Below, piece after piece: positions 39,001 through 45,000 of a DNA stretch of 64,000 bases (position 1 is the stretch's first letter; each line of letters starts with the position of its first letter). The stretch is taken from the NCBI GenBank assembly GCA_963700985.1, contig OY969554.1:1152001-1216000 (forward strand), given 5' to 3'. Position numbers: made by a program. Origin of the DNA: an uncultured Chlamydiales bacterium. GTDB taxonomy: Bacteria > Chlamydiota > Chlamydiia > Chlamydiales > Rhabdochlamydiaceae.

Positions 39001-42000
39001 ATCAGGATAATCCGATATTACTTCTGTGCCTACACATTGAGCTGAATCACAATCGTCATCGGAGATTTCACCATCATAGTAAAATGACAAATGTATTTCT
39101 TGATCATCCCAATGAATCTTAGCTGCCCTAAGTGCAGGAGAGACTTCTAGCCATAGTGCTCTATTCATCGACAAAATTGCGCCAACTCGATCTATTTTAT
39201 GAAATTCACCGTTATTTTTTTGGTCTTGCGGGGACAATATGAGCTCCTTTTTTGCTATAATGAATCGTTCCTATAGTTGTAGCAAATTTTTCCTTGGTTT
39301 TTTCATCAACAAAATATCCAATAAATTCACCAAAATCAACTCTCTCGCGATAACCAGGTTCACCAAGCACTCCGGCAACTTTTTGTCCTTTTCCCGCATG
39401 CACTTTTAAAAGCTTTTCAGGCTCAGGATGAGTCCAGATTCCTTAATTATAATTTCTTATAAAAGAAAAAACGGCGCAAAAGTACTAAGGTTTGAAGTTT
39501 TTGTCAAACAGCTCACAGAGCTTTCAAAGATCGAAGGTCTGATTTTGAGACGGCTTCTTAAGGCGCTTGCTCGACGTTTACCGGAGACTGCTCTATTTGC
39601 TCTGAATAAGGAGCGGGAACATCTTGGCTTTGGCTTAACTTACGATAGTCTTCAAACGAATGAATGATGTGAGGGCGAACGAAGATAATAATATTTCGTT
39701 TCTCATCGCGTTCTTTCGTCTTGCTAAATGCTGCCCCAATAACAGGCAGGCCGCCCAAACAAGGAATGCCGCTCTTATGGTGGGATTTGGCATTACGCGC
39801 CATCCCGCTCAACACTAAGAAATGCTTATCGGGAATATGCACATGCGTCACCATATTCGCCTTGGTGGTTCGAATACCGTTTACGGCTGAGCTAGAATTA
39901 TGCAGATCTCCCATGCTTTCGGTGATCTCTTCGTTGATGTCGAGAGTAATGACATCCCCTTCGCCTAGCATAGGTGTAATACTTAAGTTTACCCCGATGT
40001 CGCGATATTCGATATTGGCCGCAGTCTGCTGAGTTTGACCGATCGTCTGAATGACAGATCCTGTGAATGGAATGTTGTCACCGACAAAAATGGTCGAATT
40101 CTTGTTATCCTGCGTGATGATCTTCTGATTCAAGACGATTGTACTGTCGCCGTCCATCTGCAGAGCAGAAACTAAAGAACCTAGAGTAAGATAGGATTTG
40201 CCTTTGTGACGGATGATGTCACCAATTACGCCTAGATCAAAACCATTCCCCAGTGGAACCTGGCCGAGGCCCGTCGGTGTGCTATCGGCATTGATCGATT
40301 TCATGGTTGAAGCAAACTGCTGGCCGCCGTGATCGGGAGAAAAACCTCCCATTCCAAAGCCTAGCTTATCTTTATATTTGCCACCCAAAGCCCACTCAAG
40401 GCCAAATTCCATCGCTTTGCGCACATCGGTCTCAATTACCAATACCTCAATGAAAACTTGGCGTAGAGGCACATCCAGAGAGCTAATCAGCTTTTTTAAA
40501 GCGACAATGGTCTCAGGATCTCCAGAGCAAAGGAGAGAATTTGTCATCTTTACCCACTGCATGGATTGAATGGCGTCGAGCAGTTTGGTGGGTTTTTCGG
40601 GTTGATTGTGTAGATCAGCGGCGATTTTTTTGATCGCCTCATCGATTTCAGCACCTTGATGATATTGTAACTTGTAGACAAAGAACTCTCTTGGCTCAGA
40701 AGGAGTAGCTGAAGGAGCAATAGCCGGTATAATAGGAGGCAGTGCAGGCGTTAAACCTGTTAGGACATTAGCAGGCGGTTGTGTTTTTGCCAGCTCTTGC
40801 AAAGGAGATGGGATAATAGCTTCTTCGACTTTCCTTCTCTCATTAGAGGCGTGATGCGCATCTTTAGACTCTTTTCCACCTTTATGAATGACATAGTAAT
40901 CCTCTTCGCGAGTGACACCCATTCCATGCATCTTGAGCATTTGGATAAGCGCCTTCAGCACATTTTCAGAGGCGACCGGCCGGCCTGATGCAAGCGTGAT
41001 ATTGAATTCAAGTTCTTTACTATTAAAGATGAAGTTCACTTCTGAAATGCGACTAACAAATCGAATGACTTCGATTACGGGCACGTCATTAAAATTGATC
41101 GTGTGTCCGCTCTCTTCTTTTACGATCACGTCTTCAGATGGTGACGCTAAGTCGTCATCACCCAAAGCCATAATCGGCATAACAAAGAGCAGTCCAATTC
41201 CAAGAAGATGTTTTGTGTTTAGTATCGTCATAATTTGTGGCACGCCACGAACATAATAAGACGACCCGTTCTTTTTTTAATAGTAATTTTGAAAAATTTT
41301 TCACTTCCTTGCTAAAAATTTCCATTTTCCTGATAATTGACACGCGACCTGGAGAAAATTTTCATGAAAGCTACAACTATCGACAATCTTGATATGCGCA
41401 TCCATGAGCGCTACGCTCAGGATCAGCAGGCTCTCGATAAGACGTTTATTACTGAAGCACAGCTTCTTTCCCCAAGCTTCGAAAAAGTAGCCACCTCTTC
41501 GATTTACTCTTCTAAATGGGAAGAGCTGTTTGAGATGGGTGTGAAAAATTTGCCATGGGCGGCTTTCTCTCCTCCTCCATCTTATACACGTCAGCCTAAC
41601 CGTTTCTTTTCATACCGGATTCTTCCTTCTATCTTCGTTGAAGCAAGCGATGAGGATGGAGAGCATGATGCGCAAGAAGAAGATCAAGAAAAAGAAGAGA
41701 ATAAAAACGAGATCTTGAAGAAAGCGCTGAATGTCATAAAAGGAAAGAATGAAGATACTTTTCTCTTCGAGCGCGACAAATCCGCAGTCGTCACGCTCCT
41801 CCAGACCGTCCTCAACCTCAACCACATCCTCACCCAAATCAACTCCCGCAAACTCCAATATCAGAAGGGATAGATAAAGAAGATATATTGGGTACGTTTT
41901 TTCCTCCTGTTCTCTAGACATGTCGGATGGTGCGTCCCGAGGGCGCACCTCCCGCGACCACCTTGAGCCTCACCTCGCTTTGCCAAACCGCGTCCTCGAA

Positions 42001-45000
42001 GGCGGAGTGTACACAGTACAACTCCGCACGCCCTTACGGGCTCTTCTGCGGTGCGGTTTTGCTTTGCGATCTGAGGCCATGGGCTGCTCGAGCGCTCACT
42101 TCCCACACCTATCGGTGCGGGCCCCTCCTCGCGTCATCTTGCAGTACCAATTTAAGAAAGCAAGATCTGTTCGTAATGCTTAGAACAGTTCTGCGAAAGG
42201 ACGTGGAAGGGGCCCCAAGCGAAGCTAATGGGGAAGGAAACGCTTTGAGCAGCCCGACGACTCAGATCGCAAAGTAAAATCGCAGCGCAGGAAAGCCGAT
42301 AGGCGGCGGGACAGTGCACTGCACGGACCGCTTCCGAGCACGCGATTTGACGAAGCGAGATGAGGCGCAAGAGAGGCAGCGGGAGACGCGGACACACTAG
42401 TGCCGTGTCTCCGACATGTCTAAATTTAACTAAAAAGAAGCTATCTTCTCCATACATCTATCTCCCAAAAACTTATGCACTTTTGGAGTGAGGGGCCATG
42501 AGGATGTAGGATTCGAGCTCGTTGAGGCTGAGGGGGAAGTTTTTGTGGCCAAAGCCGATGCGCACGTGGCGCTTGCCGTATTCGTAGCAGGCACTGGGCA
42601 CGAGCAGCGCTTTAGTCTTTTCCATGAGATCTGCACAAAAATTCACCGCATCAGCTCTTTTTTTCAGGTGGAGCAGCGCCACACATCCCGCTTGAGGCAT
42701 TTTGCAGTCGAAAAGATCGTGGTACTTCTTTACGAAGTCATGCAACAGCTCTGCGTTGCTACGAACAAGCGCTAAGTTATGTTTGAGAATCTTCTCTCCA
42801 TGTCGAAGTGCAAGTTCTGCGAGAAACTCCGAGGTGCTGCTGCCTGCAACAGTTGTGTAATCTTTAAGTGCCAAGATCTCATGCAGAAGGATCTTTTCTT
42901 TGGTGGCAAGCCACCCTAAGCGCAATCCAGGCAGACCATAAGCTTTCGACATCGAGCCCATGGAGATTCCCTTCTCATAGATATCACAAAACTTAGGCAA
43001 ACGCTCTTGGGGCTCATGTTCTAAACCTGAATAGGTCTCATCGCAAAAGACCAGCAGGCCATTTTCGCGTGCGATTTCTACAATATCAAAGAGCTTCTTA
43101 GAAGGAAGCAAGTAGCCCGTAGGATGCGCAGGCGAGCTCATGATAAGCAAGCGCGTATTTTTGTTGATCAGCTGCTTGAGTTCTGCCGGATCCGTTTCCC
43201 AATCTTTATCTTCTTTAGATTCCCAAAAAGTCACGTCGCATCCGAGCGAGCGTGGAATTTCATAATACGGCTGGAAGCAAGGGGTCTGGACAATTATATG
43301 ATCCCCTTTTTTTAAGGCTGTCATCAAGAAGAGAAAAATCGCTTCTTCTGAACCTGTTGTAACTAGCACTTGATCGGGGTTAATCTGTGTGTATTCTTTA
43401 GAGATCGTCTTACGCAAAGCTTCTCCACCTTTAGGGGGAACGTAGCCCAGCTTAAGCTCTTTAAATTGCTTCTCCGCGCTCTTTTCATATCCTAATAATT
43501 CGCCAATTGAAAGAGGCTCGCAATCGGAGGTCGATAGCGAATAGGGCGAAGCGAATTCATACTGCTCAAAATATCTCAAGAGCTTGTAATGCGGAAAGTG
43601 CATAGGTATTCCAGGGTTATTTATTTGGTTCTTTAATCCCCTGTTACCAGAGCACAAATTAGTAAACAATAGAAGGTCTATTGGATTGAGAAAAAACCGC
43701 GACCGGAGTCGCGGTTAAGAAATAACAATCTTAGAAGTTGAAGTCAGCATGCAAGGTCAAACCTTGAAAGCTCAAATCTCCATGCGAAGGCACAACAGTG
43801 AGGATATCATCATCGGAGGCAGTTATCCCTGTTGCGACGTCTAAAATACGGCCATCATGGGAAAAGGCAAGTTCAAAGAGCTCGTTCTGCTGGAACCACT
43901 CTGAAAGTTCATAGCAAGCACGCAGTGCGATGTGATACTTGTCATTACACAGCCCTTTTTCCCACTGAAACCCAGCCGCCGTTTCGAGGTTAGCACGCAC
44001 ACGGTTGAAATCTCTTTTGACGGTGATATTTACTGGTGTGAGAGTTGTATGGATGTTTGGCCTGAATCCATTAAAACTCTCTTTTACATCAAATCTTCCA
44101 TAATTGAGCGACCCACCAACACGTCCAAAGAATCCCCAACTAGGAGTAAAGTGCCAGAGCAGGTCTGCGCCAGCTACTAACCCACCGCCTTTATACTCTA
44201 AATCGCCCTTGAACTTTGTATGAGCTTCTAAAAAGTCGATAGTAGGAGCGGCGACGGGCGAAAGGTTCAAGAATGTCCAAACGCCATTGTAATTTGCCTT
44301 ATAGTGCTGTTTGATCCACACGCCACGCACACCCATATGCGGACGCAAAGTGATGTTTCGGCTAATGAAGTAGTCTCGTCCTACTTCTAAATCCAATGTG
44401 TCGAAATTCAGCCTCCAGCGAGCTTCAGCAAAAGAAGCCGTTGGGCCGAGCGCTGCAAACCAGTGAGGAATAAGTTGATGCGATGGGACAGTAGTGACAT
44501 CGCCGGTTGGGAAAGTCGAGCCCGTTCTTCTTTGGTGAGCTTTATCATGAAAATAGGTCCAACCCAGTGTCACATCCCACTGATCGAAGTTTTCAAAGCG
44601 ATAACCCAGAGCCACGCGCGCTCCTGGCTTCCACTCGCCATGGATGTCTAAGTCTTTAGCCTTATAGGTAGTTGCATCAGACGAAACGCGAGCATTAGCC
44701 GCGTAAGCTAGATCATCTTCATCTGCACGCCAATAGAGAAACTCGGCTGCAATAAAAGGGCCATTTGCTCTGAGGTGTGAAGGGTTTTTTCCTCCCCAAG
44801 TGCCGCTGATGTTTTTCTGCGTGCTTTCATCTAGTTGAGTGCGCATATCATTTGAGCCACTGCCATCGGCAAAGAGCGAGCCAGTTAAAGCGATAAGAGT
44901 GGTGAGTGCAAATTTTCCAATTTTTGTACTACGTGACATAGTTCTCCTTTTGGGTTAAAGAATTTCATGACGATACAAATTTATTGATTTGCGTGCAATT

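Follow-up and report, generated by a model that had tools for sequence, protein, structure and literature searches.

A mobile palindromic element family with long structured arms in environmental chlamydiae

Results

A palindrome between two convergent genes

The window (the whole stretch of 64,000 nucleotides of contig OY969554.1 that was analysed) contains, at 41917-42420, an imperfect palindrome of 504 bp located between two convergent genes. It is GC-rich (59%, compared with 44.8% genome-wide) and has TA at either side. The features of the locus, and a small relative of the element elsewhere in the window, are as follows.

41337..41873, + strand: DUF5399-family gene, upstream neighbour, 3' end towards the element
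41915..41916, no strand: TA dinucleotide left of the terminus, candidate target duplication
41917..42420, no strand: the ChPE element proper
41917..41926, + strand: left terminal motif GACATGTCGG, which holds the 8-bp palindrome GACATGTC
41917..42144, + strand: left arm (unit), seen in the fold and in row 1 of alignment A1
42145..42190, no strand: AT-rich centre separating the arms, from direct reading of the sequence
42191..42420, - strand: right arm (unit), folded like the left arm but belonging to another arm type; row 2 of A1
42421..42422, no strand: TA dinucleotide right of the terminus
42473..43669, - strand: class I/II aminotransferase gene, downstream neighbour, 3' end towards the element
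63810..63867 (contig 1215810-1215867), no strand: mini-element belonging to the ChPE family, one hairpin enclosed by both terminal motifs

At the edges of the element, TA and then GACATGTCGG occupy 41915-41926, and CCGACATGTC and then TA occupy 42411-42422. Direct reading of the sequence agreed with the survey's description of the palindrome. The left arm begins with a tip hairpin (approximately 41929-41949), which is followed by a long irregular stem with two small cap hairpins and by another hairpin. The two arms are approximately 69% alike when inverted. They contain only short overlapping ORFs on both strands, and neither a promoter-like nor a terminator-like site was found in the window copy. 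The mini-element has TA at its left edge and TA(TG) at its right.

An Rfam search returned four matches (E 0.67-8.9, 10-19 bits), none of them near its gathering score; the single match overlapping the element scored 10.4 bits, the gathering score being 70. The statement that Rfam contains no counterpart thus stands.

Copies and distribution of the family

The genome of the window (G000) holds about a dozen ChPE relatives. BLAST recovered all the copies listed previously (1000089-1000596, 320128-320594, 802719-803755, 812346-812566, 1580640-1580891, and the mini-elements), and four additional relatives were found: a mini-element (216439-216496), a partial copy (721827-721969), a solo end (near 1733747), and a fragment (2058470-2058547). 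The congeners G007 and G203 have approximately 38 motif pairs each. With at most one mismatch, the terminal 12-mer occurred 38+39 times in G007 (control, 1+2) and 37+36 times in G203 (control, 5+1). The reported spread within the order was borne out by BLAST matches in 24 of 401 genomes, and 14 of the 48 genomes of the window's own family gave matches. The statement that the stretches from a pattern scan were mostly chlamydial was not reproduced with a 14-mer: unit homology was present in only 24 of 123 stretches, and the rest look like chance matches. ChPE repeats also break assemblies of chlamydial MAGs, that of G251 being an example.

The survey described two units lying head to head. The inverted arrangement was seen again, but the two units are not generally alike: arm identity was 0.48-0.75 in 34 of 37 copies, most copies thus combining two distinct arm types. 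In a few elements the palindrome is near-perfect from end to end, with arm identities of 0.90 and 0.91. The non-coding nature of the family was supported by the gap runs, 38 of 43 distinct runs not being a multiple of three and therefore breaking the reading frame. The copies are intergenic and lie 30-60 nt beyond stop codons, often between convergent genes; among 43 sites, 21 were convergent, 21 tandem and one divergent. In places the elements form tandem clusters (L011 and L212).

Empty sites and element boundaries

A comparison of G000, G007 and G203 confirmed that the copies occupy different positions in related genomes. Although the survey had been unable to align an empty site, many sites filled in G007 or G203 are empty in G000; at L055, for example, the genes on either side of a 644-nt insertion abut in G000. 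In G007, the intergenic site that corresponds to that of the window copy is empty, and the ortholog of the DUF5399-family gene is followed by a 29-nt spacer. The filled sites are longer than the empty ones by the core and another 50-110 nt, an excess that the proposed element does not explain.

The element also has terminal inverted repeats (GACATGTCGG and CCGACATGTC) in addition to the inverted whole arms. The earlier doubt about its boundaries was removed for the window's genus, in which the edge is sharp at ATA/GACATGTCGG. Where the inner sides of two ends agreed by 93% or more (G007, 14 pairs; G203, 94; G000, 4), identity outside the element fell to background (0.25-0.42) beyond position -3. 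TA flanked both ends of 37 of 45 paired elements, a rate equalled by mismatched pairs (37.4). The invariant TA is hence indistinguishable from a part of the terminal repeat and uninformative as a duplication. No direct repeat longer than TA was found at the element flanks.

Fold and covariation of the arms

The predicted fold of the whole element has an energy of -299.7 kcal/mol, compared with -185.4 ± 6.6 kcal/mol for shuffled sequences (z -17.3). Alignment A1, made with MAFFT and RNAalifold and fitted to no model, comprises 37 units and 45 predicted pairs. In this alignment 97.0% of the cells were paired, and both sides had changed in 24 of the 45 pairs, compared with 3-5 in six slid controls. 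None of 500 shuffles attained the observed percentage of pairing, number of both-sided pairs, or covariation score. A count of 48 units with a separate script gave 28 of 60 both-sided pairs versus 3-11 after sliding. These results reproduce the branched fold with compensatory changes claimed in the survey. Each helix in the arm is a local DNA palindrome, and the same architecture is kept in arm types that are 50-70% alike, across several families of the order. The stems diverge at about half the rate of unpaired columns at all divergence levels, with mainly single changes at low divergence and mainly compensated doubles at high divergence.

By presenting the element as new to Rfam, the survey implied a structured RNA. 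According to such a reading, the ~200-nt unit would be a functional RNA spread by the mobile element and serving in 3'-end protection, in termination, as an sRNA, or as a transposon-encoded guide or scaffold, and selection on the RNA fold would have led to the covariation. The covariation is indeed strong and reproducible, G:U occupies three paired positions in 80% or more of the units, and one-sided changes tilt slightly to G:U over A:C (558 versus 469, 123 versus 68, and 81 versus 56). Read-through transcripts would include units placed shortly past stop codons, often between convergent genes, and PMC5896051 describes MITEs from which sRNAs arise. However, outside the three near-fixed positions G:U (22) was about as frequent as A:C (19), both being rare (approximately 1%), and the reverse complement was the more stable strand in 35 of the 37 units. 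Real RNA families usually tolerate G:U much more than A:C. Strand-specific pairing in which G:U but not A:C is tolerated was not what the ChPE units displayed. The window copy, with neither a promoter-like nor a terminator-like site, and the absence of an Rfam match also speak against an RNA. Since pairing is Watson-Crick only and does not differ between the strands, a palindrome at the DNA level is a better account than an RNA gene, and we consider a functional RNA unlikely.

The same pairing would be expected if the compensation were unselected. Templated mutation of quasi-palindromes is established biology, and intrastrand template switching or mismatch repair of hairpins extruded during replication could perfect quasi-palindromes, leaving the fold as a by-product. 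The Watson-Crick-only pairing, equal on both strands, the palindromic nature of every helix, and the few near-perfect whole palindromes agree with this mechanism. On the other hand, the survival of the architecture among divergent arm types and in several families argues against it, and it leaves the persistence of GC-rich arms in AT-richer genomes unexplained. The slower divergence of the stems fits purifying selection and repair equally. We regard an entirely unselected origin of the fold as conceivable, though not as the explanation we would choose.

A probable IS5-family partner in one subfamily

The survey found no transposase partner. This held for G000, G007 and G203 but not for a composite subfamily in G251. 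Eight ends of the composite, 97-100% identical and with unrelated flanks, consist of a 60-nt IS5-type arm and then a ChPE unit. At least seven contig ends of the same genome carry identical left ends of an IS5-family IS, running into the N-terminus of the transposase. The first 16 nt of the terminal repeats are identical between this IS and the composite, and the IS5-type arm of the composite has further matches at IS ends in G031, G140 and G134. The outer arm of the copies in G251 and G267 agreed with IS5 ends at 16 of 16 terminal nucleotides and by 82-90% over 25-39 nt, and the related IS copies have TA flanks. In addition, the ChPE locus L014 of G267 contains a frameshifted remnant of an IS5 transposase (DDE_Tnp_4, E 3e-6; NF033581, E 3e-13). 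Because the IS terminal repeats bound the composite, and IS and composite alike occur in several near-identical copies, these sequence matches identify an IS5-family transposase as the predicted partner of the G251 subfamily.

The core end GACATGTCGG has in common with the IS5 terminal repeat only the first three nucleotides (GAC) and scattered positions. The G251 composite and L014 may also be read as nested insertions, the former with the core inside an IS-derived MITE and the latter with an IS inside the core; IS5 would then mobilise the composite but leave the GACATGTCGG-ended core unmoved. Genes of the DDE_Tnp_4 or DDE_Tnp_1 type were absent from G000, G007, G203 and G283, and the profiles PF13359 and PF01609 had no match in G000, G007 or G203. 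DDE_Tnp_4 matched in 4 of 24 ChPE-positive genomes (two of them weakly) versus 69 of 376 other scored genomes, showing no enrichment in ChPE carriers. No ChPE unit was found at 32 chlamydial and 80 metagenome IS5 loci. Since such a transposase is absent from the window's genome and its two congeners, the window copy is an orphan.

The TA flanks would also suit movement of the GACATGTCGG-ended core by a different family that targets TA, for instance IS630/Tc1-mariner. TA-duplicating bacterial MITEs such as RUP and the Correia elements have been linked or compared to IS630. However, the survey counted DDE_3 in none of five genomes, and the only transposase found physically tied to ChPE units is of the IS5 family; we consider this origin highly unlikely.

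We give even less credence to a giant REPIN-like element whose hairpins are recognised by a Y1/HUH transposase (RAYT or IS200/IS605 TnpA) that moves single-stranded DNA. Y1_Tnp genes are present in the carriers G203, G251, G178, G211 and G350, and two inverted hairpin units with compensatory changes also characterise REPINs (such changes across the hairpins are common; PMC3116915). Nevertheless, Y1_Tnp is absent from G000, G007, G283, G267, G309, G104 and G398; its frequency in ChPE-positive genomes (5 of 12) versus the family sample (24 of 61) indicates no association; and none of the four Y1 loci examined had a ChPE unit or motif. The symmetric inverted-repeat ends with TA flanks, which lack the GTAG tag, also disagree with such an enzyme.

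Discussion

We propose that ChPE is probably a family of non-autonomous, MITE-like DNA transposons (approximately 0.45-0.6 kb) of environmental chlamydiae, which depends on a transposase in trans and whose fold is held at the DNA level. In each copy an AT-rich centre separates two inverted ~230-nt arms, which mostly belong to different types. The arms are nests of local GC-rich palindromes, and the ends read TA/GACATGTCGG...CCGACATGTC/TA. Insertion would take place at TA within AT- or T-rich DNA, just beyond the 3' ends of genes. The enzyme acting in trans would be of the IS5 family (DDE_Tnp_4-type) in the G251 subfamily; in the genus of G000, we infer a related enzyme, since lost, that acted via the GACATGTCGG ends. 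The window copy is an old, decayed and immobile relic between convergent genes.

The DNA-level maintenance of the arm fold may have two causes. Either lineages whose arms keep the ability to form hairpins or cruciforms transpose or persist better, or the pairing is restored when quasi-palindromes undergo intrastrand templated repair. A stronger assumption, which we think distinctly unlikely, is that the element needs the ~200-nt branched arm as a functional structured nucleic acid, either as a DNA signal (cruciform or hairpin) that a DDE transposase or a host factor reads, or as an RNA from either strand used for transposition or for insulating the neighbouring genes. If it were correct, the arm would exemplify structured transposon ends of a new class that several chlamydial families have conserved, and a requirement of the arms for IS5-type transposition would be new for DDE transposases.

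No description of the family was found in the literature searched, and to our knowledge environmental chlamydiae are not known for MITE-type repeats. With dozens of copies per genome, several arm types and one fold, ChPE is a clean natural data set on how DNA palindromes evolve by compensatory changes. It makes testable the old question of whether covariation in mobile palindromes is selected or repair-templated. In practice, the repeats mark 3' ends of genes and are usable as strain markers.

Comparison with known systems

ChPE resembles the bacterial MITEs derived from IS (for example, IS5- or IS630-related) in several ways: it is non-coding, occurs in many copies, has inverted repeats at its ends and TA beside them, lies between genes, and shows filled and empty sites between relatives. 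Correia/NEMIS and RUP are examples of TA-flanked bacterial MITEs. As with these MITEs, an autonomous IS with the same terminal repeat accompanies the ChPE composite in G251. The differences are its size of approximately 0.5 kb, with ~230-nt inverted arms that are merely 50-75% alike; the arm itself, a branched GC-rich nest of palindromes kept by compensatory change; the absence of a matching transposase in most carriers; and, in the genus of G000, ends (GACATGTCGG) that differ from the IS ends.

The IS5-family IS (NF033581, DDE_Tnp_4) of chlamydiae and of soil and water metagenomes have TA-flanked ends starting with GAC, as does ChPE, and are linked to it by the terminal repeat on the G251 composite and the transposase inside L014. 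Unlike these IS, ChPE codes for no protein, and ordinary IS5 copies (0 of 32 and 0 of 80) have no ChPE unit.

The palindromic elements of Rickettsia (RPE) likewise spread as palindromic repeats in an obligate intracellular lineage with no obvious transposase. RPEs are 100-150 bp long and often lie in frame inside genes, whereas ChPE copies lie between genes and their indels break the frame.

In REPINs, which are associated with RAYT, two inverted units also form a replicative palindromic entity that is extragenic and in some cases arranged in tandem clusters. ChPE is five times larger, has its own branched fold in each unit, and is without an associated Y1 transposase; its ends read ATAGACATGTCGG and lack the GTAG/CGTC tag defined in PMC3733652. 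Of the survey's interpretation, the mobile, non-coding, palindromic family and its fold were upheld and the RNA reading was not, and in kind the family belongs with the MITEs and REPINs (the latter as described in PMC3116915). ChPE is a new family of the MITE/REPIN-like kind whose structured arms are unusually long, and it does not form a new category of element.

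Window copy and its relatives in G000

The ChPE copy in the window is a palindromic element with a GC content of 59%, against 44.8% for the genome, and it lies between two convergent genes.

41917–42420: ChPE copy, 504 bp; it starts with GACATGTCGG and finishes with CCGACATGTC, with TA outside both ends
ending at 41873: DUF5399-family gene, one of the convergent neighbours
ending at 42473, minus strand: class I/II aminotransferase gene, the other convergent neighbour
63810–63867: ChPE mini-element, two terminal motifs around one hairpin

The halves of the window copy are inverted copies of each other (approximately 69% alike), and the fold of the entire element is far more stable than those of its shuffles (z = −17.3). 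An Rfam search with this copy gave no match near any gathering score, and neither a promoter-like nor a terminator-like site was found in it. A search for RNA runs containing the locus listed none. All of the copies that the survey had listed in the source genome, G000, were recovered by BLAST within that genome, together with a few extra ones. The survey's finding of a ChPE family was borne out as a whole with respect to the copies, the fold, the mobility, and the lack of an Rfam match. The copy in the window is a relic and no longer active.

One copy outside the window (G000 contig positions 802719–803755; L108:720–1756) is 1034 bp long because a DUF2442 gene (89 aa, Pfam E-value 6e-24) occupies its centre. 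By eye, approximately 60 nt from the inner part of the right arm are directly duplicated on either side of this gene.

Distribution

BLAST matches to ChPE were obtained in 24 of the 401 genomes of the order, and in 14 of the 48 genomes of the family to which the window belongs. The two congeners of G000, G007 and G203, are richer in copies than G000. With at most one mismatch allowed, the 12-mer terminal motif occurs 38 + 39 times in G007 and 37 + 36 times in G203, compared to 1 + 2 and 5 + 1 times, respectively, for the reversed pattern used as the control. Forty loci were taken from these two genomes. The exact 12-mer was not in excess in three other genomes of the family, where the ChPE ends have drifted.

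A 14-mer pattern scan of the genome_contigs collection returned 123 stretches, only 24 of which were true ChPE; a 14-mer is too short for that collection. True homology to the ChPE unit was seen there at L125, L142, L160, L170, L182, L183, and L192. The named records among these loci include MAGs labelled Verrucomicrobia or Verrucomicrobiae, in addition to those labelled Chlamydiae or Parachlamydiales, which may reflect labelling or a wider host range.

The contigs of four soil runs yielded pieces of related copies alone: none bridged the window element, and no empty allele was seen. In two other runs, X3 and X4, soil contigs covered only parts of the arms (window 41927–41983 and 42212–42382) with 85–99% likeness and at greater depth than the flanks. 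Those samples therefore contain related copies from other organisms.

Two loci displayed repeated ends. In L011:2048–2360 (G283:C20), approximately five tandem units of 76 nt follow the right end of a ChPE copy. Each combines the terminal motif with a truncated form of the tip hairpin and a 41-nt, AT-rich outer arm. L212 has three terminal motifs at a spacing of 99 nt.

Pairing within the arms

Each arm, one inverted half of an element, is approximately 230 nt long. Thirty-seven arms were aligned with MAFFT independently of any structural model, and RNAalifold predicted a structure of 45 pairs. Just inside the terminal motif stands a tip hairpin, next comes a long irregular stem with two small hairpins as its caps, and a further hairpin completes the fold. 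Standard pairs occupy 97.0% of the cells, and 24 of the 45 pairs show changes on both sides, compared to 3–5 in six slid controls. In 500 shuffles, the observed paired percentage, number of both-sided pairs, and covariation score were never reached; the count of further pair types was unremarkable (274 of 500 shuffles). A separate script applied to 48 arms gave 28 of 60 pairs versus 3–11. The compensatory fold claimed by the survey therefore holds without any fitting of the alignment to the structure.

Pairwise comparison of the arms showed that stems change at about half the rate of unpaired columns, whatever the level of divergence. At low divergence the changes are mostly single-sided, and at high divergence compensated doubles prevail. 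Single changes have only a mild lean toward G:U (1.2–1.8 fold). In the class of 50–70% identity, compensated doubles account for 19% of the base-pair sites, versus 7% with single changes. G:U was found in 127 of the 1664 paired cells, but 105 of these fall in three positions, each of which is G:U in at least 80% of the arms; outside them, G:U (22) and A:C (19) each amount to approximately 1%. Of the 37 arms, 35 are more stable as the reverse complement. The near-parity of G:U and A:C and the stability of the reverse complement do not bear out the structured-RNA flavour of the survey's description. Together with the divergence pattern, the parity of the mismatches and the equality of the strands led us to conclude that the pairing is actively kept, in Watson-Crick form and equally on both strands. 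Judged from the sequences, this would fit DNA hairpins or cruciforms; RNA folding from either strand would also fit, but not a one-strand RNA gene. The maintenance may be due to selection or to templated repair of quasi-palindromes; these patterns fit either.

Arm types and mobility

The survey had described palindromes of two head-to-head units; these units are unlike, the two arms being only 0.48–0.75 identical in 34 of the 37 full elements, and 0.76–0.91 identical in three. Ends belonging to separate elements of a genome nevertheless reach 93% likeness or more. According to the tip sequences in G203, most elements combine a recurrent arm type with another arm type, in either chromosomal orientation. 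Since unlike arm types are joined, ChPE has a left and a right end, as a transposon does. Many pairs of elements have just one arm in common, at 93–96% identity, and arms are reshuffled among the copies.

The flanks of the 40 congener loci were mapped on G000, where many pairs are adjacent with no element between them. In the cleanest case, L055, a 644-nt insertion in G203 separates genes that abut in G000. The window site is itself empty in G007, where the orthologous DUF5399 and aminotransferase genes are 29 nt apart. Alignable empty sites, of which the survey had reported none, thus do exist, and together with the different locations of the copies they uphold ChPE as a mobile palindromic family. 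Filled sites exceed the sum of core and empty site by 50–110 nt, and the intergenic DNA between the species is too diverged to align. In G203, an element follows the same upstream gene as the window copy, with the arm types swapped and a different right-hand neighbour; we interpret it as a separate insertion at a favoured position and not as shared descent. The youngest full-length pairs are 97.6% identical in G203 and 86% in G007, and hence ChPE activity in the genus of G000 is old.

At the G007 junction orthologous to L055 (L118:1740–1900, G007:C3) lies a different insert of approximately 170 nt that has a hairpin of its own, CACCGAG...CTCGGTG. Since the genes abut here in G000 and are separated by ChPE in G203, the junction collects different repeats.

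Element boundary and target sites

Pairs of ends that share at least 93% identity across their first 60 inner nucleotides are still 0.92–0.93 identical at positions −3 to −1 outside the element; beyond −3 their identity falls at once to 0.25–0.42, the level of unrelated pairs. This drop confirms the survey's termini for the genus of G000. In several other genera, the inverted repeat extends 20–60 nt past GACATGTC (L009, L011, L013, and L014). Such outer arms were sought on the window copy and rejected for the genus of G000, as the flank likeness of that copy was not significant (174 of 2000 shuffles did as well) and the boundary in the genus lies at −3.

In 37 of 45 elements TA flanks both ends; being near-invariant, TA is inseparable from a part of the end. 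No direct repeat longer than TA was found at the 45 elements. The 2–3 nt outside ATA on the two sides of an element are often complementary, and each genome has its own form: CCATA...TATGG (G007), GAATA...TATTC (G203), and CTATA...TATAG (G000). They could represent a slightly longer terminal repeat or a preference for palindromic targets.

ChPE elements are located just downstream of genes. A rough ORF call placed 21 of 43 sites between convergent genes, 21 between tandem genes, and 1 between divergent genes. The flanks are T-rich at −20 to −12, and several contain, by eye, terminator-like hairpins followed by T runs. In G203, the flanks at L063, L065, and L066 share a near-identical terminator-like hairpin, AGTTTTCC-loop-GGAAAACT followed by CATTTCATTTTTTATT, 15–30 nt outside four ChPE ends. 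This hairpin represents either another family of small repeats or a target that is preferred.

Link of part of the family to an IS5-family transposase

A long copy in another genome of the order (L014, G267) has 1310 bp between its motifs and a frameshifted transposase in its centre. The C-terminal piece of the transposase matches DDE_Tnp_4 (E-value 3e-6) and NF033581, the NCBIfam IS5-family model (E-value 3e-13). The intact relatives closest to it occur in other chlamydial genomes; they are IS5-family elements whose terminal repeats start with TA followed by GACTTCTTTC. In L009 (G251) and L014, the extended palindromes have this repeat as their outer tips. In G251, seven contig ends are identical IS left ends running into the transposase start, with different flanking DNA each time. 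The same genome contains a composite at eight ends in seven places, 97–100% identical with unrelated flanks, in which a 60-nt arm sharing the first 16 nt of the IS is directly followed by ATA, GACATGTCGG, and a ChPE arm. This sequence pattern is typical of an autonomous IS with its non-autonomous passenger.

The survey overlooked this IS5-family link. Where it had found no transposase partner, the part of the family in G251 has a probable one, and the copy in G267 encloses a remnant; its negative stands for G000, G007, G203, and G283, in which neither DDE_Tnp_4 nor DDE_Tnp_1 gave a match. An order-wide link to DDE_Tnp_4 was rejected: the domain is not enriched in carriers, with matches in 4 of 24 ChPE-positive genomes (two of them weak) versus 69 of the 376 other scored genomes. 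No ChPE arm was found in 32 chlamydial or 80 metagenomic IS5 loci, none of the 80 metagenome loci contained an intact ChPE-flanked transposase, and none of the 123 pattern-scan stretches contained this transposase. Since these IS5 loci lack ChPE arms and most carriers lack DDE_Tnp_4, both structures may instead have arisen by nesting, the composite by landing of a ChPE core in the TA at the centre of a MITE derived from an IS, and L014 by landing of an IS in the centre of a core. The inner borders of L014, which resemble a diverged IS repeat, are consistent with the latter, and nesting of ISs in MITEs is known elsewhere (PMC5896051). With nesting, IS5 would move the composite, and the GACATGTCGG-ended cores in the genus of G000 would have been moved by another, now absent enzyme, a loss that fits the old activity there.

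Three other candidates were discarded. Tblastn for a transposase remnant in G000 gave one marginal match (E-value 0.005), inside an unrelated reading frame. The strict IS terminal repeat TAGACTTCTTTC occurred within 100 nt of 2 of 101 ends in the genus of G000, compared to 1–2 in the controls. Y1/HUH transposases (Y1_Tnp) are present in 5 of 12 carriers versus 24 of 61 genomes overall, with no ChPE units beside Y1 genes.

Two further observations concern G251. Seven contigs (L335–L341) break off approximately 137 nt into identical copies of the IS5-family IS; because its multiple copies are collapsed in the assembly, it is undercounted by the Pfam search of this genome. In L334 (G251:C100), approximately 47 nt inside an IS-type arm, the arm leads into a small perfect hairpin that is not a ChPE unit. 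The centre of this hairpin is a 14-bp palindrome containing GACATGTC, and the same 8-mer thus recurs in another small palindromic element.

Comparison with known systems

A description of ChPE was not found in the literature searched (including PMC3733652, PMC3116915, PMC13229535, and PMC5896051). In the genus of G000, ChPE differs from the known systems in having no matching transposase. It is the same in kind as a MITE and, like a REPIN, is a doublet of hairpins; compensatory changes across the hairpin have been reported for REPINs (PMC3116915). ChPE differs from both MITEs and REPINs in its size, its long unlike arms, and the branched fold within each arm.
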